Assembly: GCA_038893835.1 (NCBI GenBank)
Contig: JAWAQR010000002.1
Location: 2,632 to 66,631, forward strand
Reading direction: 5' to 3'
Length of the DNA stretch: 64,000 nt
From: Archaeoglobaceae archaeon
GTDB taxonomy: Archaea; Halobacteriota; Archaeoglobi; Archaeoglobales; Archaeoglobaceae
The position numbers and the translations under genes were made by a program. The stretch's first letter is position 1; each line of letters opens with the position of its first letter. This document shows, piece after piece, positions 1 through 35,632 of this stretch. Below the pieces are notes generated by a model that saw only the letters and a program-made list of their open reading frames with translations, ran no database searches and was not told where the DNA came from.

Positions 1-662
1 CCACCATCGGTCATTGGACAGCAATCGAGTAAAGTGAGGGGAGAGCAGATCATTCTAGATTTTAGAACATCTTCAACTTTCAGATCACCATATTTTCCAT
101 AGAATTGTGCTTTTGGATTTATTGCACCATATTTGTGGTTTTTAACGGAAACGTGAGCCATCATCTCTCTTAACTTCTCCAATGGGATCTCATATTTTTT
201 CGCATAATACCTTGCAGCCAAGGCGAAGACGCCTGGAAAAGTTAGGCCTGCAGTCATTTCATAAACTCCATCCACAGCTGTTGCTAAAGCTCTTGTCCCT
301 ATTGCAGTTCCAGCGCTTAAAAGCTTTTCAGCACCCCCAACAACGACACAGTTGTAGTAACCAGCTTTAACAGCTCTAACAGCTTCTCTGAATGCAACAC
401 TTGAAGAAGCGCAGGCTCCTTCATATCTTATAGCTGGCAAATTCTTCAATCCCACTTCATCAGCAACAAATCCACTCAGATTTGCGGAACCATCGGTCAT
501 TTCTCCGACAAAGTTGCCGAAATAAACAGCTTCGATATCCTTTAGCTCTATGTTCGCATCTTTTAAAGCCTCAAAAAAAGCCTCTGCAAACAAGTCTACC
601 AGAGATTTATCCGGATGTTTTCCAAACTTTGTCATTCCTACTCCAATAACAGCCACTCTCAA
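1..662 (-). CDS. thiolase (acetyl-CoA acetyltransferase / SCP-x-type 3-ketoacyl-CoA thiolase); N-terminal ~220 codons, C-terminus lies beyond window start
   Basis: My own minus-strand translation from TTG at 662 gives [21 protein letters not shown]...IRYEGACASSSVAFREAVRAVKAGYYNCVVVGGAEKL...LLDCCPMTDGG, with a typical thiolase N-terminal domain and active-site Cys context. The TTG start overlaps the TGA of the upstream gene (TTGA). The ORF track misses it because it has a non-ATG start and is truncated. Confidence 0.85.
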   Translation of the reverse strand, partial: MRVAVIGVGMTKFGKHPDKSLVDLFAEAFFEALKDANIELKDIEAVYFGNFVGEMTDGSANLSGFVADEVGLKNLPAIRYEGACASSSVAFREAVRAVKAGYYNCVVVGGAEKLLSAGTAIGTRALATAVDGVYEMTAGLTFPGVFALAARYYAKKYEIPLEKLREMMAHVSVKNHKYGAINPKAQFYGKYGDLKVEDVLKSRMICSPLTLLDCCPMTDG

Positions 663-6137: not shown

Positions 6138-6950
6138 ATGTTTACTGGTATTTTTTATCATGAAAGCTTCAGTAGGAGAAGCTATCTAACCTTGGGTAAC
6201 AGGTTGAGAGATTTTCCAAAAGCTTTTGAGCTCTTGGAAGGAAGAAGGGTGAAAATATTTGAATCTCCTGAAGTCAGTCTCAAGCTGGTTAGGAAAGTGC
6301 ATTCGGAAAGGATGATTGAGGCAGTTTTTAAAGAGAAACTATGTTCAACAGCTCTAAGATCTGCGGGAGGTGTTGTTAAAGCTTCTGAAATGGTCTTTTG
6401 CAATCATTTGAAGAACGCATTTTGCTACATAGGCACTGGAGGTCATCATGCCGGAAGGGATTATTTCTGGGGCTATTGTTGCTTCAACGACGTTGTTTTG
6501 GCCATTGAAAATATAGTTGAAAAATTTGGAAGCAAGAGATTTGCAATCATCGACACGGATGCGCATCACGGTGATGGGACCAGGGAACTGGTTAGGGATG
6601 AAGTTCTTCATTTTTGCATTTGTGACAGAGATTATGAGTCGAGGGATGGCTTGAAGATAGATAGAAGCTATTTTACAAACGACTACTTTGACTGCATTGA
6701 AGAATTCGTAGAAAAATGTGAAAAATTCTCTCCAGAGTTGATTTTCTGGTACTTTGGCCATGACACTCACGTGGGAGATTACGCTGACATCGGGATGAAA
6801 GTGGAAGATTATGTGAAAATTGCAAAAATTTTGAAAGAATGTGCTGAGAAAGTTTGTAGTGGTAAGCTTGTAACGGTTCTTGGCGGTGGCAGTCTGCCTG
6901 AAATAGCAAGGGATTCGACGATTGCAATAATTAGGGAACTCAGTGAGTAA
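6138..6950 (+). CDS. short histone-deacetylase/AcuC/acetylpolyamine-amidohydrolase superfamily protein
   Basis: 270 aa with GTGGHHAGRD (catalytic HH), IIDTDAHHGDGT (Zn ligands) and FGHDTHVGD. It starts 14 nt after the acyl-CoA synthetase stop. Confidence 0.75.
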   Translation: MFTGIFYHESFSRRSYLTLGNRLRDFPKAFELLEGRRVKIFESPEVSLKLVRKVHSERMIEAVFKEKLCSTALRSAGGVVKASEMVFCNHLKNAFCYIGTGGHHAGRDYFWGYCCFNDVVLAIENIVEKFGSKRFAIIDTDAHHGDGTRELVRDEVLHFCICDRDYESRDGLKIDRSYFTNDYFDCIEEFVEKCEKFSPELIFWYFGHDTHVGDYADIGMKVEDYVKIAKILKECAEKVCSGKLVTVLGGGSLPEIARDSTIAIIRELSE

Positions 6951-7770
6951 TTCCAAAGAAATTCCTTGGAGTGAACTTTTTCTTTTTCAAAAATTCCTCA
7001 CATCTTTCCCTAAACTCGTTTGAGATCCAGATTAGGGAAGTTAGATCTCTTGCAATCTCGTAGCTTGACATGGCAAATTCGGTCCAAAAATTGAGTCCTG
7101 ATTTTATCACTCTAAAAGCCTGTGGACTGCAGTTTTCCAGAATCTCATTTGCTAAATCCTTCGCAGCTCTCTCAAGTTCTTCATCTTCCACAACCTTGTT
7201 TATCAACCCAATTCTAAACGCCTCCTCTGCATCTATTATTTTTCCGGTTAGCAAAAGCTCTCTAGCTCTTCTCTCTCCAATTAAAAGCGGTAGGAGCTGA
7301 ACCCCAAGTCCCATTGCAGTGGAACCAACTCTTACCTCTGGCTGACCAAATTTTGCATTCTTGGAAGCTATGACAAAGTCACATGCCATCGCGATTTCAT
7401 TTCCTCCAGCTACGCAATAACCACGTACTGCTGCAATCGTAGGTTTTCCAACACTTCGAAGAAAGCGAACAACATCTAGATAACTTTCAAACCATTTTAT
7501 CGCATTCTCGAAATCTAGAGAAATCAACTCCCTGATATCTGCTCCTACACAGAAATTTTTTGTTTTTGTCGAAATTATGATTGCAAAAGCTTTTTCATCA
7601 GCTTCAAAAAGAGCTTTATGCAATTCTTTCAAAAGTTTCAATCTGAGTGTGTTCATTTCCGAATCTTTGAGATATATCCAGGCAATCTTTCCATCGAGCT
7701 GTAATTCGACACCCATGATGAAAGTCTGTTCGAAGTATTTAATACCTTCGAATAAAAAACTCTTTTCCAT
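6940..7770 (-). CDS. enoyl-CoA hydratase/isomerase (crotonase) family protein
   Basis: 276 aa with a crotonase fold pattern: FCVGADIRE, AAVRGYCVAGGNEIAMACDFVIAS, FGQPEVRVG. An alternative start at M19 (7716) would remove the 32-nt overlap with the upstream gene. Confidence 0.8.
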   Translation of the reverse strand: MEKSFLFEGIKYFEQTFIMGVELQLDGKIAWIYLKDSEMNTLRLKLLKELHKALFEADEKAFAIIISTKTKNFCVGADIRELISLDFENAIKWFESYLDVVRFLRSVGKPTIAAVRGYCVAGGNEIAMACDFVIASKNAKFGQPEVRVGSTAMGLGVQLLPLLIGERRARELLLTGKIIDAEEAFRIGLINKVVEDEELERAAKDLANEILENCSPQAFRVIKSGLNFWTEFAMSSYEIARDLTSLIWISNEFRERCEEFLKKKKFTPRNFFGITH

Positions 7771-9822: not shown

Positions 9823-10092
9823 TCAGCTTACGTAATTCTCTCTTTCATATCCAAGGCTTATATCTTGAAGCATTTTTGATGCCAAACCGAGCAAAACTTT
9901 GTCGTTCCCGATTATTTCTCTTATGAGCATAAGAGATGCGGATTCTTTTAGTTCAATACTTTTCAAGTCTTCGAGTAATCTTAGAAGCTTTATCGCTAAT
10001 TTATAAATTTCCTTAAGCTTTTCACTATCCTCAGCGTCGATCTCTTCTTCCTCTTCGAAAAAATCGAATTCATCAAACTCGAACTCATCCAT
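9823..10092 (-). CDS. small acidic hypothetical protein
   Basis: 89-aa ORF with a poly-acidic N-terminus (DEFEFDEFDFFEEEEEIDAED). No family recognised. Confidence 0.4.
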   Translation of the reverse strand: MDEFEFDEFDFFEEEEEIDAEDSEKLKEIYKLAIKLLRLLEDLKSIELKESASLMLIREIIGNDKVLLGLASKMLQDISLGYERENYVS

Positions 10093-10155
10093 AGATAAGT
10101 GAAGCGATAAAGGAGAATTTAAGTCTTTCCTACAAAAAATTTTAAAATCTGTAGT

Positions 10156-10212
10156 CTTTATATTTGTTAGATTTAAATACTAACTTAATTCAAGCAAAAG
10201 TCTTATAAATCC
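10156..10212 (+). promoter_or_regulatory. candidate rRNA operon promoter(s), TATA-like boxes
   Basis: CTTTATATTT (10156-10165), ATTTAAATAC (10171-10180) and CTTATAAATCC (10202-10212) lie 200-260 nt upstream of the 16S 5' end. The transcription start is not determinable from sequence. Confidence 0.35.
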
Positions 10213-10354
10213 AGAAGAAAAAGAAGATATTGCACAAAAACAAAAACCGCGGATCCAGCAAGGACCCCGACAGAGCATAGCTTTGGATGAGGGGTAGGAT
10301 TCTAGTCCGCGGTAAAGCATAAGGAGGACCGCAAAAAATTTGCGGTCTGATGTG

Positions 10355-10389
10355 GGGCTTACCAGCAGGACAAACTGGTAGGCAGGGGA
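10355..10389 (+). other. 5' arm of the 16S processing stem with a canonical bulge-helix-bulge (BHB) motif
   Basis: GGGGCTTACCAGCA-GGAC-AAA-CTGGTAGGCAGG pairs with 11902-11935 (CCTGCCTACCAG-GTCT-AAA-TGCTGGTAAGTCCC). This gives two long helices flanking a 4-bp helix with a 3-nt AAA bulge on each strand. Confidence 0.8.
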
Positions 10390-10412
10390 CGTATTCACCA
10401 ATTCCCCCGCCA

Positions 10413-11898
<1,486 letters not shown>

Positions 11899-11901
11899 CG
11901 T

Positions 11902-11935
11902 TCCTGCCTACCAGGTCTAAATGCTGGTAAGTCCC
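11902..11935 (+). other. 3' arm of the 16S BHB processing stem
   Basis: Complementary to 10355-10389 (see that feature). Confidence 0.8.
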
Positions 11936-11999
11936 TTTTTCGTGCACCCGGCGATGAAAGTCGTCGGGGAAGGGTTAATGGGCTAAATGCCCAAGTGAG

Positions 12000-12021
12000 A
12001 CCGTGCAGGGGTAGGTGTAAA

Positions 12022-12032
<11 letters not shown>
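12000..12032 (+). other. 5' arm of the 23S processing stem with a canonical BHB motif
   Basis: ACCGTGCAGGGGTAG-GTGT-AAA-CTGGGACTGGC pairs with 14967-14999 (GCCAGTTCCAG-GCAC-AAG-CTACCCCTGCACGGT). This is a 15-bp helix, a 4-bp central helix, 3-nt bulges and an 11-bp helix. Confidence 0.8.
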
Positions 12033-14966
<2,934 letters not shown>

Positions 14967-18541: not shown

Positions 18542-20605
18542 ATGGTGAAAGAAGTAAGGGATCCTATTGAAATGATGAGAGAAGAATTCCAGAATTACGT
18601 AATACCAAAGGGTTGGGAGACTAAGATGGAATCGTTAGACGACTGGAAACAATTCTACGAATCGACGATAAAAGATAGGAAGGCTGTGGAACAGTGGTGG
18701 GAATACTGGGCAAATCAGATCCATTGGTTCAAGAAGTGGGAGAAGGTACTGGATGACAGCAATCCTCCATTCTATAAATGGTTCGTAGGTGGCGAGACAA
18801 ATTTGGCATACCTTTGTACAGATTGGCAGATTCAGAAGGGTAGAAAGAACAAGGTGGCATTAATTTGGGAAGGAGAGCCAGTTGATGAGAGAGGAGAGCC
18901 AAAAGAAGTCAGAAAGCTTACATACTACGATATGTGGAGAGAATCAAACAGAATCGCTTATGCTTTGAAAGAGAAACTTAATGTTAAAAAAGGAGAAATA
19001 TTGACTCTCTATCTACCAATGATCCCAGAGCTGCCACTTTTCATGCTAGCAGTTCAGAGAATTGGTGCCGCACACAGCATCGTTTTCAGCGGTTTCAGTG
19101 CAGAGGCTTTGGCTGTCAGAGCAATCGATGCTGGTGCTAGGATAATTGTCACTGCCGATGGTCTTTGGAGAAGAGGGAAACAGTTGAACTTGAAGACAAT
19201 CGTTGATGAGGCTATAAAGATATGCGAAAAGGAAGGGCATAAGATAGAGAAGGTAATAGTGGTAAAAAGACTTGGAATAGAAATTCCATGGGTAGAAGGG
19301 AGAGACATTTGGTTCCACGATCTGCTTTCAGATGTGCCCAAGAACGTCTTCGTTGAATGTGAGCCTAAGGGAAGCGATGATTATAGCTACATACTTTACA
19401 CATCTGGAACAACTGGAAAACCAAAAGGAGCGCAGCACAGCGTTGGTGGATATGCGGTTTATCTCTACGCTACGACCAAGTTGATATTCGACATACGTGA
19501 AGATGACATCTACTGGTGCACGGCCGACATTGGCTGGGTTACTGGACATAGCTATATAGTTTATGGCCCAATGATGCACGGAGCGACAATAGTAATGTAT
19601 GAGGGAGCTCCAGACTATCCAGATCCCAGCAGATGGGCTGCGATGATTGAAAGATATGGTGTCACGATATTCTATACAACTCCAACTGCAATAAGAATGC
19701 TCATGAAATTCCCAGAGGAAATATATCTTAAGCATGACACTTCAACGCTACGCATAGCACATAGCGTTGGAGAGCCAATAAATCCGGAGGCGTGGAGATG
19801 GTATTTCAGAGTCTTTGGAAGAGAAAAGACTTGCAGTTCGAGCACTTGGTGGATGACAGAGACCGGTGGAATGCTTAGTGGTCATTATCCAGGTAGAGGA
19901 AAGATATTGCCGCTGAAACCAGGGACTAATGGTCCAATATTCCCAGGCATAACCTGTGCAGTGGTGGATGATGATGGAAATCCAGTACCACCTGGGCAGA
20001 GAGGGTACTTTGTGATAACTTCTCCATGGCCAGGAATGTTGATGACCCTTTGGAAAGATCCGAACAGATATATTGATGTCTATTATGGAAAATACAAGCA
20101 CAAGGGTTGGTGGTTCTATACAGGCGACTTTGCAATGCTTGACCAAGATGGCTGGATTTGGGTAATTGGAAGAGCTGATGATATTATAAAGGTTGCAGGA
20201 CACAGAATAGGGACAGCAGAAGTTGAATCGGCGATGATAAAGCATCCAGCTGTTGCAGAATCTGCCTGTGTTGGAAAGAGTGATCCGATAAAGGGAGAGA
20301 TTCCACTGATATATGTAACGCTGAAGAAGGGATACACGCCTTCAGAAGAGCTGAGGGAGGAGTTGAAGAAACATCTGAGAGCAACCATTGGTCCTGTAGT
20401 GGCAAGTGATGCTGTGATAACCTTTGTAGAATTGTTGCCAAAGACGAGAAGTGGAAAGATAATGCGCAGATTGCTGAGAGCGGTTGCAGAAGGAAAGCCA
20501 CTCGGAGATGTCACAACGCTTGAGAGCGAAGTTGCAGTTGAAGAGGCTAAGAAGGCGTACGAAATGGTAAAAGCCGCTCTTGAAGCAGGTTCATCTTCAA
20601 AGTAA
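18542..20605 (+). CDS. acs: acetyl-CoA synthetase (AMP-forming)
   Basis: Motifs: YTSGTTGKPKGAQH, WWMTETGG, YYTGDFAMLDQDGWIWVIGRADDIIKVAGHRIGTAEVESA, PKTRSGKIMRR. The ORF track opens at TTG 18524. I prefer ATG 18542 because the TATA-like ATTTATAAAT at 18511-18520 is about 25 nt upstream, which suggests a leaderless mRNA. Confidence 0.93.
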   Translation: MVKEVRDPIEMMREEFQNYVIPKGWETKMESLDDWKQFYESTIKDRKAVEQWWEYWANQIHWFKKWEKVLDDSNPPFYKWFVGGETNLAYLCTDWQIQKGRKNKVALIWEGEPVDERGEPKEVRKLTYYDMWRESNRIAYALKEKLNVKKGEILTLYLPMIPELPLFMLAVQRIGAAHSIVFSGFSAEALAVRAIDAGARIIVTADGLWRRGKQLNLKTIVDEAIKICEKEGHKIEKVIVVKRLGIEIPWVEGRDIWFHDLLSDVPKNVFVECEPKGSDDYSYILYTSGTTGKPKGAQHSVGGYAVYLYATTKLIFDIREDDIYWCTADIGWVTGHSYIVYGPMMHGATIVMYEGAPDYPDPSRWAAMIERYGVTIFYTTPTAIRMLMKFPEEIYLKHDTSTLRIAHSVGEPINPEAWRWYFRVFGREKTCSSSTWWMTETGGMLSGHYPGRGKILPLKPGTNGPIFPGITCAVVDDDGNPVPPGQRGYFVITSPWPGMLMTLWKDPNRYIDVYYGKYKHKGWWFYTGDFAMLDQDGWIWVIGRADDIIKVAGHRIGTAEVESAMIKHPAVAESACVGKSDPIKGEIPLIYVTLKKGYTPSEELREELKKHLRATIGPVVASDAVITFVELLPKTRSGKIMRRLLRAVAEGKPLGDVTTLESEVAVEEAKKAYEMVKAALEAGSSSK

Positions 20606-20646
20606 ATAATTATTTTTTTAAATATAAAATTAAAAATGGTGATAAT

Positions 20647-21885
20647 ATGAATCGTTGGCTCTTTATATTAGCAGGATTAATAATTAATATTTGTCTTGGA
20701 GCTATTTATGCTTATAGCGTACTTCAAGTTCCAATAAAAAAGCTTTTTGAAGCACCTCCTCCACAAGGATTTGGGCTCAAGGTTACCGCAACTGAAATGC
20801 AACTTCCATTTATAACTTTTCTCGCTTTGTTCGCTTTTACAATGCCATTGGTCGGAAAATTCATCGAAAAATATGGTCCTAGAAAGGTTGCAATAGTTGG
20901 TGGAATAGTAGTAGGATTGGGATGGTTCCTTGCATCATTTGCAACTTCTCCACTTTCACTAGTCTTTTTATACGGCGTAATAGGAGGTCTTGGTGTAGGG
21001 ATAGCTTATAACTGTCCAATAGTAACCTCTGGAAGATGGTTTCCGGATAGGAGAGGTTTAGCCCTGGGCTTAACGATTTTGGGTTTCGGAATTTCTCCTT
21101 TGATTACTGCACCGCTTATAGATTACTTCACAGCAATTTATGGAATTCAAAATGCCCTTAAGATTCTTGGAGTAATCTTTACGGTACTAATATTGATTTT
21201 TGCATCAATTCTCCGCTTCCCACCTGCCGATTGGAAGCCAGAAGGTTGGACCCCTCCAGCAGGCACTGCTCCCACTTCCGGTCTATTAAGACATGAGATG
21301 GTTAGAACTAGGGCTTTCTATGGTCTATGGCTTTGCTACACCATTGGAACACTTGCTGGATTGCTAGCGATAGGTGTTGCAAAACCTGTGGGTCTTGAAG
21401 TAGCTAAAAACATAGGAATTTCTGAAGCAGAGATTTCAGCCTTTCTAACAGGTTTAGTAGGTGTATTCGCATGCTGCAATGGTTTTGGAAGACCTCTATT
21501 CGGATGGATAACGGATAAAATAAAGCCTGTGAAAGCTGCAATTCTTTCTTACATTCTCATAATCATAGCATCGATGGCGATCTACAACAATCAAACATCG
21601 CTCGCAGTCTATGCTATTAGCTTTGCAATCCTTTGGCTAAATCTTGGAGGCTGGCTGGCGATAGCTCCAGCTGCAACGGCAAGCTTGTTTGGAATGAAGG
21701 ACTATGCCAGAAACTATGGACTGGTATTCACAGCTTATGGGGCTGGGGCTATAATAGGGAACATCTTGGTGGGGCAGGCTAAAGACATCTTCGGCGCTTA
21801 TATTGCGGTTTTTCCAATTGTTGCCAGTCTTGCAGCTCTTGGAATTCTTTTGGCAATAACACTTATGAGACCAAAGAAAAGCTAG
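20647..21885 (+). CDS. MFS transporter, oxalate/formate-antiporter-like family
   Basis: 412 aa with about 12 predicted TM helices and a typical OFA/MFS loop (GRWFPDRRGLALGL). It lies 41 nt downstream of acs. Confidence 0.8.
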   Translation: MNRWLFILAGLIINICLGAIYAYSVLQVPIKKLFEAPPPQGFGLKVTATEMQLPFITFLALFAFTMPLVGKFIEKYGPRKVAIVGGIVVGLGWFLASFATSPLSLVFLYGVIGGLGVGIAYNCPIVTSGRWFPDRRGLALGLTILGFGISPLITAPLIDYFTAIYGIQNALKILGVIFTVLILIFASILRFPPADWKPEGWTPPAGTAPTSGLLRHEMVRTRAFYGLWLCYTIGTLAGLLAIGVAKPVGLEVAKNIGISEAEISAFLTGLVGVFACCNGFGRPLFGWITDKIKPVKAAILSYILIIIASMAIYNNQTSLAVYAISFAILWLNLGGWLAIAPAATASLFGMKDYARNYGLVFTAYGAGAIIGNILVGQAKDIFGAYIAVFPIVASLAALGILLAITLMRPKKS

Positions 21886-22160
21886 TCTTCTAAATCCCAT
21901 TTTTTGCTTGGATCATCTTTTATATATTTTTCAATTAGTTTTTTTTCGATGTCCACGTCGAAATAATTTGCAAGACTTATGACCATGAAGAAGACATCTG
22001 TCAACTCCTCTTCTATTCCTTTTAAGTCCCTTTTTCTAATACTTTCTGCAAGCTCTCCAACCTCCTCAAAGAGTACTGAAAGTAAAAAAAGGGGACTGCT
22101 CTTTACATCGATTGAATAGTATTTTTCTCTTATTATCTTTTTGATTTCTTTAAATTCCAT
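21882..22160 (-). CDS. MazG-like nucleotide pyrophosphohydrolase domain protein
   Basis: 92 aa with an EEVGELAE...EELTDVFFMVISLANYFDVD (EExxE...ExxD) four-helix MazG signature. Confidence 0.7.
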   Translation of the reverse strand: MEFKEIKKIIREKYYSIDVKSSPLFLLSVLFEEVGELAESIRKRDLKGIEEELTDVFFMVISLANYFDVDIEKKLIEKYIKDDPSKKWDLED

Positions 22161-22165
22161 AAATT

Positions 22166-23302
22166 CTATTTCACTTCCCTCCCGACGCTCTTAGCCCAGA
22201 CGTATGATAGACTTCTGTAGATTAAGTGTGCGAACTTTGTATAAGGTGCAAAGGCTATTAGTGTGAAGACGAGGATCAAATGGACCATGTAAGCATAGTA
22301 GGCGAGATGACTTTCGGAATATCTGAAAAATTCGATTAAGACGCCGCTTACACCAACAGCGAGTATGGTTGCTAAGAAAAGGAAATCGAAGTAAGTTCCA
22401 TAACCTATCCTTTCATCCTTAAATCTTGCGACGATTGCCCATGTTGTGCCGATAAGGAGTAAGAGAGCTCCAAAGTTTCCGATGATTTTTACTGGATCCG
22501 TAATCGCTAGGGCTAGCTCATGATGGCCTAGAACATAAAGATAAATTATATCGCCGATGGTTGCAATTCCAAGTACAATGAATCCCCAGAAGATCAACAA
22601 ATGGGCGTAGAATCTATACTTTGCCTTGTTGCATTGTCTGAACTTCGAATGCTTTAAAATATCCACTATTGACCAGAAGAGATATTCTATGAATCTGGCA
22701 GAGGCTTTTGTGATCTTTATCTCTCCTTTTTCTCCGATTTCATACTCGTAAACCTTGGAAACTTTTGAATTTATCGCTACCCAGAAGCGGTATGCGCTGA
22801 TCGCAGCAACCAATAAAACCCAAGCTCCAACTGCAAAGCCAGCTAGTTCAACGTGTGTGTGCGGAATAAATTTGCTTAGCACTATTTCCCCTTCAGGAAT
22901 TTGTGGATTGAAGATTGCCATGTAAAGCGCTAGGAAGAAAATGGGGATTGCGAAATACAGCAGTATGCCTGCAGGTCTTCTGAAAATTTTTGAAAGGAAG
23001 GATGGGAAAGTGTAATGCTCAACAACCTTCGCCCTTATCGCTGCAAGCACTTCGCCAGGTTTTGCCCCTCTCGGGCAATAATCGCTACAATCGTTGCATT
23101 GATGGCAGAGCCAAACATCAGCATCGCTTAGCAACCTTTCTTTTGCTCCCCATTGAGCCCAAATCATTTCCTTTCTTGGGAATGGATTTTCATCAGGACT
23201 TTGAGGGCAAACAACGCTACATGTAGCGCATTGATAGCACTTCTTTAAGCTTTTTCCACCAGCCTGAATTATTTCTTGTGCAAACTTCGCATCTACAATC
23301 AT
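22166..23302 (-). CDS. qmoC: quinone-interacting membrane-bound oxidoreductase subunit C (HdrC-like FeS domain fused to an HdrE/NarI-like heme-b membrane domain)
   Basis: 378 aa. N-terminal CYQCATCSVVCP and CHQCNDCSDYCP cluster motifs are followed by about 6 TM helices. It lies directly downstream of two HdrA-like flavoproteins. Confidence 0.85.
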   Translation of the reverse strand: MIVDAKFAQEIIQAGGKSLKKCYQCATCSVVCPQSPDENPFPRKEMIWAQWGAKERLLSDADVWLCHQCNDCSDYCPRGAKPGEVLAAIRAKVVEHYTFPSFLSKIFRRPAGILLYFAIPIFFLALYMAIFNPQIPEGEIVLSKFIPHTHVELAGFAVGAWVLLVAAISAYRFWVAINSKVSKVYEYEIGEKGEIKITKASARFIEYLFWSIVDILKHSKFRQCNKAKYRFYAHLLIFWGFIVLGIATIGDIIYLYVLGHHELALAITDPVKIIGNFGALLLLIGTTWAIVARFKDERIGYGTYFDFLFLATILAVGVSGVLIEFFRYSESHLAYYAYMVHLILVFTLIAFAPYTKFAHLIYRSLSYVWAKSVGREVK

Positions 23303-32211: not shown

Positions 32212-32490
32212 AAAAAAATTCTAATTCGCATGTTAAAAAACTTTCTCAGCTGAAGGAAATGCTTAAATTTCTCCAACACTAAAAAAGTTATACCCTTGTT
32301 TAACATTGTAATAAAATAAATAAGTAATATTTATTATCGTTATTCCTCAGAGCAATTCGATATTTTCTCGACTTGCCAGTTTGGATATGCAAAACCTAGA
32401 GGGACAACTTTTATCGTTAGACTAAAATCTAAACAACACAATTAATAATTAACAAAAAATTTAAGTTTACTAGAGCAAAACATATATTAT

Positions 32491-33369
32491 ATGTTGGAAG
32501 TTTACAAAAAGTTACCCAAAGAATCTTTTGAATTAATTCTAAGAAACTTTACTGTTAGGGAATATTTAAAAAATGCTTGGAATAAATTCCTTCTTTCTGG
32601 AAACTTAGAACCTTCAAGTCTTGAAAAAATCTTTGATGAACTCTTTAGATTCTTTCTTCGTCCATTTGAGCTAATAATTTTCAATGAAAAAATAGTTAGA
32701 TCAATTTTTCCGATAGAAAAAATTCTAGTTGGTGAAGATGTTCTCTCCGCTTACACCGAATTCGTTGAATCCTTTACTTCTCACATGAAGTTGACTTTCC
32801 AGCTTTTCTCTCAACCCTTCTTTGAGAGAATGCCTGTGGAGAATTTTATAGAAGAGTGGAAAAAGTTCTTCGATAAATTCGAGGTAAAACCTGTGATTCC
32901 ATACGATCTACCCTTTGCTCTGCCAGAGAATGCAAAGAACTATCTTATCGACTGCATCTTGCATTGGAAAGAGTTTGTCATAGATTACGAAAAATACAGA
33001 GACTTACTCAGAAATTCCTACATGAAATCTGTTGAAAAGTTCTGCGAATTTTTGTCAAAATCCAAACCAAATAGTTTTGAAGAATTTAGAAACTCTTTCA
33101 TGGATTTTATGGCAAAAGAATTCGATTCTTTGCTGATTTCAGAGGAATACCTGAAATTACAGCAAAAGCTCCTGGATGCCCTTTTTGACCATATCTACTG
33201 CCTTCGCAGATTCTTGGAGTTACTAATAGAGAACAATCCTGCTAGCCCATTTGCAACAGTATCGCAGATCGATGAAGCTTACAAGCGGATCATGGATTTG
33301 AGGAGAAAAGTTTTGGAGCTTGAAAAAAGAATAGAATTGCTAGAGGGTAAGTATGCTCGAAAGGATTAA
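32491..33369 (+). CDS. phaE: putative PHA synthase subunit PhaE (assigned mainly by context)
   Basis: 292-aa helical protein with a C-terminal coiled coil (MDLRRKVLELEKRIELLEGK). It overlaps the phaC start by 17 nt, matching the class III PhaE-PhaC arrangement. Confidence 0.5.
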   Translation: MLEVYKKLPKESFELILRNFTVREYLKNAWNKFLLSGNLEPSSLEKIFDELFRFFLRPFELIIFNEKIVRSIFPIEKILVGEDVLSAYTEFVESFTSHMKLTFQLFSQPFFERMPVENFIEEWKKFFDKFEVKPVIPYDLPFALPENAKNYLIDCILHWKEFVIDYEKYRDLLRNSYMKSVEKFCEFLSKSKPNSFEEFRNSFMDFMAKEFDSLLISEEYLKLQQKLLDALFDHIYCLRRFLELLIENNPASPFATVSQIDEAYKRIMDLRRKVLELEKRIELLEGKYARKD

Positions 33370-34333
33370 AGATTTGGAAGTTAAGCCATGGAGCTGTGAG
33401 TTTGAAGTGGTCCATGAAGACTGGTTGTTCAAATTGCTCCACTTTAAGGGGGAGAGAAAGCATAGAACTCCTTTGTTGTTCGTTTACGCATTCATAAATC
33501 GCCCTTATATCCTCGATTTGCATGAAGATGTTAGCATAGTGAAAAAATTGGTCAAAGAGGGAATCGATGTATGGATGATCGACTGGGGATATCCGAAGAG
33601 GGCTGATAAGTTCTTTAGAATTTCGGATTACATAGATTACATAGATTTTTGCGTGGAGAAAATAAGAAGGGAAACAAAAAGCGACTCCATAACTCTCCAT
33701 GGTTACTGTCTAGGTTCAACACTCTCAGTTATATACGCGAGCCTGTATCCTGAAAAGGTAAAGAATTTGGTGATTCAAACTCCGCCCATAAACTTCAATA
33801 CCGAAAATACTTTAGCCATCTGGGCAAAGCACATAGATCCAAAGAAGATATCTAGAGCAGTTGGAAACGTGAGCGGTGAAATGTTGAATCTGGCATTTCT
33901 ACTAATAGATCCAATTCGTCTCGTTTATGCAAAGTATCAAACTCTCTTGGACAATTTCGAAGATCCAAAGTTCTTAAGGGAATTCTTTTATATGGACTTC
34001 TGGATCTTTGACTCACCATCAATTCCAGGAAGCGTATTTGAGGAGTTCATAGAACGATGGTATCACAGGAACGAACTGATCGAAAATAGATATGATGTGA
34101 ACGGGAGAAAGGTTGATTTGAACAACATAAAAATGCCAGTTCTAGCGCTTTATGCTGAAAAAGACCATATAACTCCTCCGAGTTCAATCATTCCCTTCTT
34201 AGAAAAAATACCATCAAAGGATAAAAAGGTGCTTAGCGTTGATAAAGGACATATAGGCTTGACTGTGAGCAAGAGTTCGCATGCAAAATTGTGGAAAGAA
34301 GCGATAAAGTGGATAGTTGAGCACTCAGATTGA
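33353..34333 (+). CDS. phaC: class III poly(3-hydroxyalkanoate) synthase catalytic subunit PhaC
   Basis: 326 aa with PLLFVYAFINRPYILDLHEDVSIVKKLVKEGIDVWMIDWGYP, the Cys lipase box GYCLGS, and candidate Asp (AEKDHITPP) and His (DKGHIGLTVS) of the catalytic triad. Confidence 0.85.
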   Translation: MLERIKDLEVKPWSCEFEVVHEDWLFKLLHFKGERKHRTPLLFVYAFINRPYILDLHEDVSIVKKLVKEGIDVWMIDWGYPKRADKFFRISDYIDYIDFCVEKIRRETKSDSITLHGYCLGSTLSVIYASLYPEKVKNLVIQTPPINFNTENTLAIWAKHIDPKKISRAVGNVSGEMLNLAFLLIDPIRLVYAKYQTLLDNFEDPKFLREFFYMDFWIFDSPSIPGSVFEEFIERWYHRNELIENRYDVNGRKVDLNNIKMPVLALYAEKDHITPPSSIIPFLEKIPSKDKKVLSVDKGHIGLTVSKSSHAKLWKEAIKWIVEHSD

Positions 34334-35632
34334 TCTTAAATCCACAACTCTCCTTGCTTTTCCCATGGATCTCTCTATTCTACCTTTTTCAACCAGCTCG
34401 ACATTGGTTCTTAGCATTAGTTCCCTCTGCAATGCTTTTTGTATTTTCTCCTGCAATCTTTTCAAGTCTTCAAGCTCTCCTGTAAAGAACTCATCCCTTA
34501 CCTCAACTCTTATAGTTATCTCATCCAGAGATCCTTTTCTAGTCAGCAATATCTGGAAGTTATCCCCCACTTCAGGTATTTGCATCAAAACATGCTCTAT
34601 CTGGCTTGGAAAAACGTTTACTCCACGAACTATGAGCATGTCATCGCTTCTCCCGAGAATTCTCATTAGTCTTGGATGTGTCCTTCCACAGGCACATTTT
34701 TCCGTTTCGATGATTGTTATGTCTCCCGTCCTATATCTCAATATCGGCATCGCTTCCTTAGTAAGGGGAGTTAACACGAGTTCTCCCCTTTCCCCTTCTC
34801 CAACTCTTTCCCCAGTCTCTGGGTCTATTATCTCGACGAAATAGTGATCGATCCAGATATGCAACCCCTGCTGCTCTTTACATTCAAAAGCAACTCCAGG
34901 TCCATTCATTTCGCTTAAACCATAGCTGTCATATGCCTTTATTCCAAAAGCATCCTCGAGCCTTTTTCTAGTATTCTCGCTCCAAGGTTCAGCACCAAAG
35001 CAACCAAATTTCAGCTTCAATTTATCCAGCAAACCCAGCTCTTCGGCAACTTCCTTAATGTGCAAAGCGTAGCTGGGTGTTGAATGAATCGCAGTTGTGC
35101 AGAAATCGACCATGTACTGTATTTGTCTTTCCGTATTTCCAACACCTGAAGGAATTGTTACAGCTCCAATTTTCTCCGCTCCATACTGGAATCCCAGTCC
35201 TCCTGTGAAAAAGGCGTAATTCACTATGTTCTGGAAAACATCTCCCTTCCGAAGTCCTACCATGTAAAGACATCTTGCAACCATATTTGCCCAAGTTTCT
35301 ATGTCTTTGGCCGTATATCCTACAACTTTTGGCTTTCCAGAAGTGCCACTCGAGGTGTGTATCCTTACAATCTCACTCTTTGGCACCGCAAACAATCCAA
35401 AAGGATAGTTTTCAGCGAAGTGTTCCTTTGTCGTGAAAGGTATTTTTTCAACGTCATCGAAGCTTTTTATATCATCTGGAGTGACGTTTGCGGCTTTCAT
35501 TCTTTTTTTAAAGAAAAAAACATTTTCATAAGCTCTCTTTATTGTTTGTTTTAATCTTTTAAACTGCAACTCTTCAAGCTCTTCCTTTGGAAGACATTCT
35601 TCCCTATCCCAGAACTCCTCGCTCCATGGCAT
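34325..35632 (-). CDS. paaK: phenylacetate-CoA ligase (PaaK) / coenzyme F390 synthetase family
   Basis: 435 aa with HTSSGTSGKPKVVGYT, YGLSEMNGPGVAFEC and RYRTGDITIIETEKCACGRTHPRLMRILGRSDDMLIVRGVNVFPSQIE. Confidence 0.85.
   Translation of the reverse strand: MPWSEEFWDREECLPKEELEELQFKRLKQTIKRAYENVFFFKKRMKAANVTPDDIKSFDDVEKIPFTTKEHFAENYPFGLFAVPKSEIVRIHTSSGTSGKPKVVGYTAKDIETWANMVARCLYMVGLRKGDVFQNIVNYAFFTGGLGFQYGAEKIGAVTIPSGVGNTERQIQYMVDFCTTAIHSTPSYALHIKEVAEELGLLDKLKLKFGCFGAEPWSENTRKRLEDAFGIKAYDSYGLSEMNGPGVAFECKEQQGLHIWIDHYFVEIIDPETGERVGEGERGELVLTPLTKEAMPILRYRTGDITIIETEKCACGRTHPRLMRILGRSDDMLIVRGVNVFPSQIEHVLMQIPEVGDNFQILLTRKGSLDEITIRVEVRDEFFTGELEDLKRLQEKIQKALQRELMLRTNVELVEKGRIERSMGKARRVVDLRSI
34578..34666. 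repeat. 89-nt tract in paaK-1, inverted copy of 52801-52889 in paaK-2 (88/89 identical)
   Basis: The reverse complement of 34578-34666 equals 52801-52889 except for one base (CGT vs CGC). Adjacent codons coding the same amino acids differ at many synonymous sites. Confidence 0.9.

Follow-up and report, generated by a model that had tools for sequence, protein, structure and literature searches.

A predicted class III-type polyhydroxyalkanoate synthase gene pair in a small Archaeoglobaceae genome

Does a very small Archaeoglobaceae genome encode a polyhydroxyalkanoate (PHA) synthase, and, if so, of which type and with which partner genes? The question is raised by two overlapping open reading frames (ORFs) in a 64,000-nucleotide stretch of an Archaeoglobaceae archaeon (contig JAWAQR010000002.1 of assembly GCA_038893835.1, forward-strand positions 2,632 to 66,631; referred to here as the window), which an original prediction made from the sequence alone had described as a class III PHA synthase gene, phaC, preceded by a phaE-like gene. 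The ORFs are present exactly as it gave them, as follows.

32491-33369, forward strand: phaE, a 292-aa ORF, predicted long-type, all-helical, non-catalytic subunit of a class III-type PHA synthase
33353-34333, forward strand: phaC, a 326-aa ORF, predicted catalytic subunit with an alpha/beta-hydrolase core

Judged by sequence, this is a genuine and intact class III-type PhaE-PhaC pair, and it probably encodes a two-subunit PHA synthase. The gene family is not new to these archaea. Screening of thermophile genomes has yielded seven putative PhaC sequences, which come from Ferroglobus, Geoglobus, and Archaeoglobus and are accompanied by a possible upstream phaE and by phaR and phaP nearby, and that study calls for experimental work, noting that PHA storage above approximately 80°C growth has never been shown and that the causes of its rarity in extreme thermophiles are debated (10.1101/2025.05.06.652502). 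Because database records also name orthologues of both proteins as PhaE and PhaC, the novelty that the original prediction attached to such a pair was overstated. What is added here is homology between the long PhaE and its bacterial counterparts, the pairing of the two genes in 33 of 33 genomes, a modelled interface in which PhaE clamps the PhaC cap, and the dispersal of the pha genes in a small genome in which no PhaB was found.

The catalytic subunit

Profile searches assign the 326-aa protein to the class III synthases. TIGR01836 (class III) matches it with 338.6 bits over profile positions 34-349 of 350, better by more than 200 bits than the class I (125.8 bits) and class II (75.3 bits) profiles, though below the trusted cut-off of the model, a point taken up later. 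PF00561 also matches (1.6e-18), as does PF07167 (PhaC_N), with 27.8 bits against a gathering score of 23.7. All significant phmmer matches in the PDB are PHA synthases (E 7e-21 to 1e-14), and alignment with the solved PhaC structures 9KNJ, 5HZ2, 5T6O, and 5XAV (E 7e-21 to 2e-15) places C119, D271, and H300 opposite the catalytic triad C319, D480, and H508 of Cupriavidus necator, and S61, D55, and W217 opposite S260, D254, and W425. Among 120 aligned PhaC sequences, comprising 118 homologues and the two PhaC proteins of the source genome, the triad, D55, S61, G117, G121, and G299 are invariant and W217 is kept in 119. The class III hallmarks first claimed for this protein are therefore sound, and the motifs quoted for it are all present, namely the lipase-like box G117-Y-C119-L-G-S122 (GYCLGS, residues 117-122), TPLLFVYAFINRPYILDL, and MIDWGYP.

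Phylogenetic reconstruction, rooted on three class I enzymes and made without thaumarchaeal or class IV references, gathers all class III-like PhaC proteins in one clade with support 100, apart from class I. Three groups are recovered within it: haloarchaeal PhaC together with the type encoded by a second phaC on contig 7 of the source genome (support 98), bacterial class III PhaC (support 97), and the window type together with proteins of metagenome-assembled genomes (MAGs) labelled Bathyarchaeota and Chloroflexi (support 95); the branching order among the three is not settled by the tree. The window PhaC thus falls among class III synthases and not among other hydrolases, in line with the original prediction. 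The two PhaC paralogues of the source genome lie in separate supported groups and, on this tree, are ancient lineages and not products of a recent duplication.

Compared with the characterised PhaC of Haloferax mediterranei pHM300, the window PhaC shows 40.4% identity across 98% of its length. With the class I enzymes (C. necator 5HZ2/5T6O, Chromobacterium 5XAV, and 9KNJ) it has in common the alpha/beta-hydrolase core, the Cys-Asp-His triad, the conserved Trp, and the cap subdomain, whereas those enzymes are homodimers of approximately 560-600 aa with a long N-terminal domain and no PhaE, and the cap region is covered by PhaE in the model of the window pair described below.

The PhaE subunit and its modelled complex with PhaC

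The 292-aa protein passes the gathering score of PF09712 (26.9 against 25.7 bits), with the match limited to residues 158-277. Its 50 homologues are nearly all labelled Archaeoglobaceae or Archaeoglobales, and many are named PhaE or carry PF09712, several having been so named by NCBI or UniRef. A 35-member family alignment shows conserved N-terminal motifs, LPKESFEL..RN and FRFF.RP.E, within which an invariant P-K-E-S-F-E-L..N and the pattern F..RP.E stand out, and a C-terminal segment of the PhaE box type, NP..PFAT....DEA..RI..L.R, followed by a coiled coil (NPASPFATVSQIDEAYKRIMDLRRKVLELEKRIELLE). The coiled-coil ending originally attributed to the protein is borne out by an all-helical fold and a C-terminal heptad-like tail. 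A hidden Markov model built from the same alignment matches the co-directional ORF directly 5' of phaC in 60 of 75 bacterial class III loci, mostly from Desulfobacterota and Gammaproteobacteria, with E values of 4e-15 to 1e-3 over profile positions of approximately 90-300 and in proteins of similar length. Since the profile reaches so many bacterial loci, the long archaeal PhaE is, at the sequence level, a homologue of bacterial PhaE in which only the first ~90 residues are lineage-specific. The identification of PhaE was said to rest on synteny and not on recognisable motifs; the Pfam match and the bacterial matches show otherwise. The synteny itself is strict, with the long PhaE directly upstream of, and co-directional with, the approximately 325-340 aa type of PhaC in all 33 Archaeoglobi genomes that have it.

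An AlphaFold2 model of PhaE alone consists entirely of helices (predicted local distance difference test, pLDDT, 73.9). Comparisons with the PDB by sequence or fold gave no informative match (nothing at E <= 0.001 by fold), and the best PDB profile match of the PhaE family, at E 0.005, proved to be an unrelated helical protein. Alignment of the family by hhalign with the single sequence of Haloferax PhaE gave 24% probability, confined to the PhaE box.

Prediction of the PhaE-PhaC complex scored 0.82 in three runs, a mark reached by 58 of 80 solved complexes and by 2 of 110 mismatched pairs, with 0.06 for the best of three controls. The runs have at least 93% of contacts in common and partner pLDDT values of at least 73. 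On the PhaC side the modelled interface comprises the cap subdomain (approximately residues 151-220), residues 83-95, and the N-terminus, and on the PhaE side residues 3-23, 51-58, 197-239, and 257-275. Invariant PhaE residues are concentrated at this interface (14 of 32, with 5.5 expected; p = 1.5e-4), an enrichment that is not fully independent of the model, which was built on our own alignments, because conservation can influence alignment-driven models. Sequence, profile, and fold searches found no PhaE-like chain in the PDB, which makes it unlikely that the score reflects memory of a solved complex, and the modelling supports binding of PhaE to PhaC.

Bacterial class III PhaEC synthases are exemplified by Allochromatium vinosum, Synechocystis, and Desulfococcus multivorans, and were represented in our comparison by Desulfosarcina, Desulforapulum, and Rhizobium loci. 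The window pair resembles them in having two subunits of approximately 300-370 aa each, with PhaE upstream and co-directional, the same triad and core motifs, PhaE profile homology over ~200 residues, and PhaC identities of approximately 38-44%. It differs in that the window PhaC lacks ~33 N-terminal residues, has a lower TIGR01836 score (338.6 against 391-424 bits), carries the box GYCLGS where the bacterial enzymes have G[IV]C[MQ]GG, and lies in the separate clade with proteins of Bathyarchaeota- and Chloroflexi-labelled MAGs; the first ~90 residues of the archaeal PhaE, including LPKESFEL..RN, are unmatched in bacterial PhaE.

Alternative readings and the genomic context

Several observations weigh against a storage polyester synthase. 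The 338.6 bits of the window PhaC lie below the TIGR01836 trusted cut-off of 365.3, and both the validated H. mediterranei PhaC (418 bits) and the bacterial class III enzymes (Desulfosarcina, 424; Rhizobium, 391) score higher, while the Geoglobus ahangari orthologue scores 340; none of 96 Archaeoglobi genomes reaches this cut-off, which is an annotation threshold and not a biochemical criterion. The first ~33 profile positions are missing from the protein. Its box ends in Ser instead of Gly, in the canonical box G-x-C-x-G-G, whose last Gly we take to correspond to C. necator G322, and this position is G in 45, A in 30, S in 23, and T in 22 of the 120 sequences; the equivalent of C. necator D351 is N147, with N in 69 and D in 44. 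For the partner, TIGR01834 (PhaE) gives 27.4 bits against a cut-off of 154.95, which is also how the validated 182-aa PhaE of H. mediterranei behaves (PF09712, 28.3 bits; TIGR01834, 29.1 bits), and the dependence of the interface enrichment on our own alignments has been noted above. The pha genes of the source genome are scattered, and neither a PhaB nor a recognisable PHA depolymerase was found in it. Finally, a literature search for experimental PHA in Archaeoglobales or Archaeoglobaceae found none, and the 2025 preprint on these genes offers evidence of a genomic kind only (10.1101/2025.05.06.652502).

Such features would suit a PhaC-like acyl-CoA-dependent enzyme that makes no storage granules, such as a thioesterase or transacylase, an oligo-(3-hydroxyalkanoate) (complexed polyhydroxybutyrate, or cPHB, type) synthase, or a hydrolase that resembles depolymerases and is paired with a helical protein. 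In favour of this alternative are the low profile score and missing N-terminus, the Ser and Asn substitutions, the empty literature search, and the lack of a depolymerase to mobilise a store. However, the nucleophile is Cys and not Ser, the whole PhaC triad and the core residues are invariant, and the protein groups within class III synthases. All substitutions at the end of the box are small (G, A, S, or T), as the nucleophile elbow requires, and the change there is therefore a deviation and not a disqualification. In addition, relatives keep the pair together with maoC, phaR, and a phasin-like gene, ordered as in the experimentally studied Haloferax cluster. We consider this alternative improbable, and retain the two-subunit PHA synthase.

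The relatives provide the context that the source genome has lost. TIGR01836-type genes occur in 41 of 96 Archaeoglobi species genomes and in 18 of the 19 genomes of the window's genus, usually in two copies. A complete genome of 1,770,093 bp with a protein named for G. ahangari has the window-type PhaC as its sole PhaC, in the gene order maoC-phaR-phaP-phaE-phaC, the same as in the studied Haloferax cluster. A complete 2.2 Mb Ferroglobus-like genome and two genomes of the window's own genus have the window-type pair adjoining phaR-phaP and a second pair, composed of a short PhaE-like gene and a ~370-aa PhaC, and in the two same-genus genomes phaE, phaC, and maoC form one co-directional string with maoC directly 3' of the window-type phaC. 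The long PhaE thus goes with the window-type PhaC and the short PhaE with the second PhaC lineage.

The published clusters predicted in Archaeoglobaceae (G. ahangari, Ferroglobus placidus, and Archaeoglobus spp.) contain the same orthologous PhaC (66% identity to that of G. ahangari) and the same long PhaE, joined there with maoC, phaR, and phaP but broken up in the source genome, and the evidence for them is genomic, as it is for the window pair (10.1101/2025.05.06.652502). The box proposed in that preprint, [GS]-x-C-x-[GA]-G, does not literally fit the GYCLG[S/A/T] of the window clade, and two distinct PhaE architectures are not described in it (10.1101/2025.05.06.652502).

Two further observations concern the distribution of these genes. 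A sister genus is represented by a complete 2.2 Mb genome in which TIGR01836 matches only a C-terminal PhaC fragment of 92 residues at 1002305-1002589 (62.5 bits over profile positions 259-350); the fragment is interrupted by an in-frame TGA and looks like the relic of a lost PHA synthase gene. Archaeoglobaceae-type phaE-phaC pairs also occur on short contigs in MAGs with bacterial labels (JAMOPX010000149.1, labelled Desulfobacterales, and others labelled Marinimicrobia and Leptospiraceae), with PhaC 63-80% identical to the window PhaC and PhaE scoring 450 bits against the family profile; these probably reflect mis-binning and not transfer.

The source genome itself comprises 1.17 Mb in 35 contigs and is an estimated 97% complete, and its closest PhaC and PhaE relatives are proteins of Archaeoglobaceae MAGs, with identities of up to 85% and 67%, respectively. 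The pha genes are dispersed over at least four loci, and the genes found outside the window are these.

Contig 7, 20595-21155, forward strand: second PhaE-like gene, 186 aa, helical, with a PhaE-box-like motif VSRKDIIALSEAYVDLKG and no Pfam match
Contig 7, 21136-22248, forward strand: second phaC, 370 aa, box GYCMGG, TIGR01836 299 bits, overlapping the 186-aa gene
Contig 21, 19426-19746, reverse strand: phaR-like gene for an AbrB/SpoVT regulator, E 1e-10 to Haloferax PhaR
Contig 21, 19164-19499, reverse strand: phasin-like gene, 111 aa, helical, overlapping the phaR-like gene
Contig 23, 9834-13861, forward strand: four co-directional abutting or overlapping genes (thiolase, HpaB-like, MaoC, and metallo-beta-lactamase (MBL)-fold)

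The 186-aa protein shows no real similarity to the long PhaE family by hhalign, and the family to which it belongs matches haloarchaeal PhaE with 5% probability in the box only; with matches so weak, its designation as a putative PhaE follows from position, size, and motif. Likewise, the 111-aa protein has no match in Pfam or NCBIfam, where the validated Haloferax PhaP also falls below thresholds, and is a candidate phasin by its position after phaR and by its orthologues, which lie directly 3' of phaR in the pha clusters of four relatives.

Genes for monomer supply are similarly spread out. MaoC/PhaJ-type hydratases are encoded on contigs 27 and 23, the latter within the run of four genes, which begins with an acetyl-CoA C-acetyltransferase (NF005033, 640 bits) and continues with a 481-aa protein like HpaB and 4-hydroxybutyryl-CoA dehydratase, a 145-aa MaoC (R)-hydratase, and an MBL-fold hydrolase. 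Together these genes could lead from 4-hydroxybutyrate or acetoacetyl-CoA to (R)-3-hydroxybutyryl-CoA. Genome-wide there are eight thiolase matches (seven above the Pfam cut-off), seven crotonases, and four 3-hydroxyacyl-CoA dehydrogenases; the thiolase and crotonase reported elsewhere in the window were also recovered, as a partial ORF at 3-662 (reverse strand) and an ORF at 6940-7770 (reverse strand), respectively. No TIGR01829 match to a PhaB/FabG-type reductase of the short-chain dehydrogenase/reductase (SDR) family was found at E <= 0.001, and a phmmer search with Haloferax FabG against source-genome ORFs of at least 80 aa gave no match at E <= 10. Searches for a PHA depolymerase found neither patatin nor Esterase_PHB, and absence from a MAG that is 97% complete is in neither case proof. 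That no SDR/FabG-type reductase was found beside such a large set of beta-oxidation genes is unusual. Because no PhaB-type reductase was found and MaoC hydratases are present, the monomer route probably runs from enoyl-CoA to (R)-3-hydroxyacyl-CoA by way of PhaJ-type R-specific hydratases. Monomer-supply and granule genes, which the original prediction did not find next to the pair, are present, but on other contigs (the two maoC genes, phaR-phaP, the beta-oxidation genes, and the second phaEC).

The second pair also clarifies the relationship to the haloarchaeal subtype, as known from the pHM300 cluster of H. mediterranei (maoC and phaR-phaP-phaE-phaC). The accessory set and its order are the same in relatives of the window pair, and the two systems are alike in the identity of their PhaC proteins and in the PF09712 scores of their PhaE proteins. 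However, haloarchaeal PhaC is 423-566 aa long with a long C-terminal extension and is accompanied by a PhaE of ~182 aa, whereas the window pair encodes 326 and 292 aa and its PhaC ends with the core; in the tree it is the contig-7 paralogue, and not the window PhaC, that joins the haloarchaeal enzymes (support 98); and FabG-type PhaB reductases adjoin the haloarchaeal cluster, with none found in the source genome. By these comparisons the window pair is not of the haloarchaeal subtype and the contig-7 paralogue is.

It could accordingly be asked whether the contig-7 pair does the actual synthesis, with the window pair as a redundant or specialised reserve that is silent, conditional, or directed to other substrates. 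Two complete pairs do occur together in the source genome and in most members of its genus, the H. mediterranei PhaC is closer to the contig-7 paralogue (311 against 271 bits), and linkage of the window pair to maoC and phaRP has been lost. However, G. ahangari carries only the window-type pair, inside a full maoC-phaR-phaP cluster, and this type can therefore be the sole synthase; in same-genus genomes it is also the window-type pair that has maoC in its operon. Both window genes moreover appear to be kept by selection. Against the nearest orthologue the proportions of nonsynonymous (pN) and synonymous (pS) differences are 0.097 and 0.82 for phaC and 0.197 and 0.84 for phaE; they are given in place of dN/dS, for which the synonymous sites are too saturated (pS 0.82-0.92). 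Low pN at saturated pS indicates strong purifying selection on both genes despite the lost linkage, and this in a reduced genome of 1.17 Mb. A back-up role for the window pair is, in our view, slightly less probable even than an enzyme without granules.

That the 292-aa product is an unrelated coiled-coil neighbour and PhaC acts alone is barely credible, since its marginal Pfam match to the C-terminal 120 residues only, the 24% hhalign probability with Haloferax PhaE, and the lack of a structural match in the PDB are set against adjacency in 33 of 33 genomes with a 17-nt overlap, profile matches to bacterial PhaE in 60 of 75 loci, and a complex model well above its best control with invariant residues enriched at the interface.

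Proposed mechanism and significance

The remaining features of the locus concern expression of the pair and its surroundings.

32212-32490, forward strand: putative intergenic promoter region common to phaE and a divergent TPR gene, by direct reading of the sequence
33343-33369, forward strand: translational-coupling junction of phaE and phaC, by direct reading of the sequence
34325-35632, reverse strand: paaK-like AMP-forming ligase gene, convergent with phaC, with AMP-binding and AMP-binding_C_2 domains

The phaC ATG at 33353 lies within the end of phaE, whose TAA stop occupies 33367-33369, giving the overlap of 17 nt, and a GAGGG Shine-Dalgarno-like element at 33343-33347 is placed 5 nt 5' of that ATG; both features fit translational coupling of phaC to phaE. 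The intergenic region upstream of phaE is 279 bp long and AT-rich and contains an A-rich, TATA-like stretch, AAAAAATTTAAGTTTA, at 32454-32469, which is 22-37 nt 5' of the phaE ATG. This spacing, together with the lack of a Shine-Dalgarno element before phaE on direct reading of the upstream region, suggests that the phaE mRNA is leaderless or has a short leader. The pair otherwise stands alone, with the TPR gene on one side and the convergent ligase gene on the other, the stop codons of the ligase gene and phaC overlapping by 9 nt.

If the window PhaC works like the PhaC enzymes that have been solved and mutagenised, Cys119, activated by His300, would receive the (R)-3-hydroxyacyl group of the CoA thioester as a covalent thioester, and Asp271 would then activate the 3-hydroxyl on the incoming unit or the growing one, giving the ester bond with release of CoA. 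PhaE, presumably translationally coupled, is modelled as lying across the cap (lid) subdomain of PhaC, approximately residues 151-220, and contacting it through the invariant N-terminal motif and the C-terminal PhaE box, and the terminal coiled coil probably serves in oligomerisation or granule attachment. Monomers would most likely be supplied from enoyl-CoA by the MaoC/PhaJ-type hydratases of contigs 27 and 23, fed by the beta-oxidation and thiolase set; the contig-21 phaR-phaP genes would provide a regulator and a phasin, and the haloarchaeal-like phaEC of contig 7 would constitute a separate, anciently diverged module.

The temperature at which such a system would operate can be estimated by proxy. 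The fraction of I, V, Y, W, R, E, and L residues (IVYWREL) in the source proteome is 0.448, which by the Zeldovich relation we take to correspond to ~85°C, and the 16S rRNA is 61.9% GC in a genome of 40% GC. The label of a hyperthermophilic, Archaeoglobus-like sulfate reducer given in the original prediction is reasonable, and its support consists of these proxies.

A broader proposal, which we put forward tentatively and regard as rather doubtful in its full form, is that the Archaeoglobaceae have two ancient, non-redundant PhaE-PhaC modules, a bacterial-like one with a long PhaE whose N-terminal LPKESFEL..RN motif would clamp the PhaC cap, and a haloarchaeal-like one with a short PhaE, and that the window type would be a hyperthermostable synthase forming polyester from beta-oxidation enoyl-CoA through PhaJ, without PhaB, at ~80-85°C in a streamlined sulfate reducer of 1.17 Mb. 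If true, this would be the first demonstrated PHA storage in a hyperthermophile.

The locus is an incremental discovery: gene family, annotation, and underlying idea are all public already. It nonetheless adds a very small Archaeoglobaceae genome in which a PhaEC pair is well conserved and maintained by selection, and comparison with relatives points to two types of PhaEC module in the family, to homology between the long archaeal PhaE and bacterial PhaE, and to a monomer route that is probably of the PhaJ and not the PhaB type. An active enzyme would be of biotechnological interest as a thermostable polyester synthase, and would make it possible to test concretely whether granules of amorphous PHA can exist in such heat.

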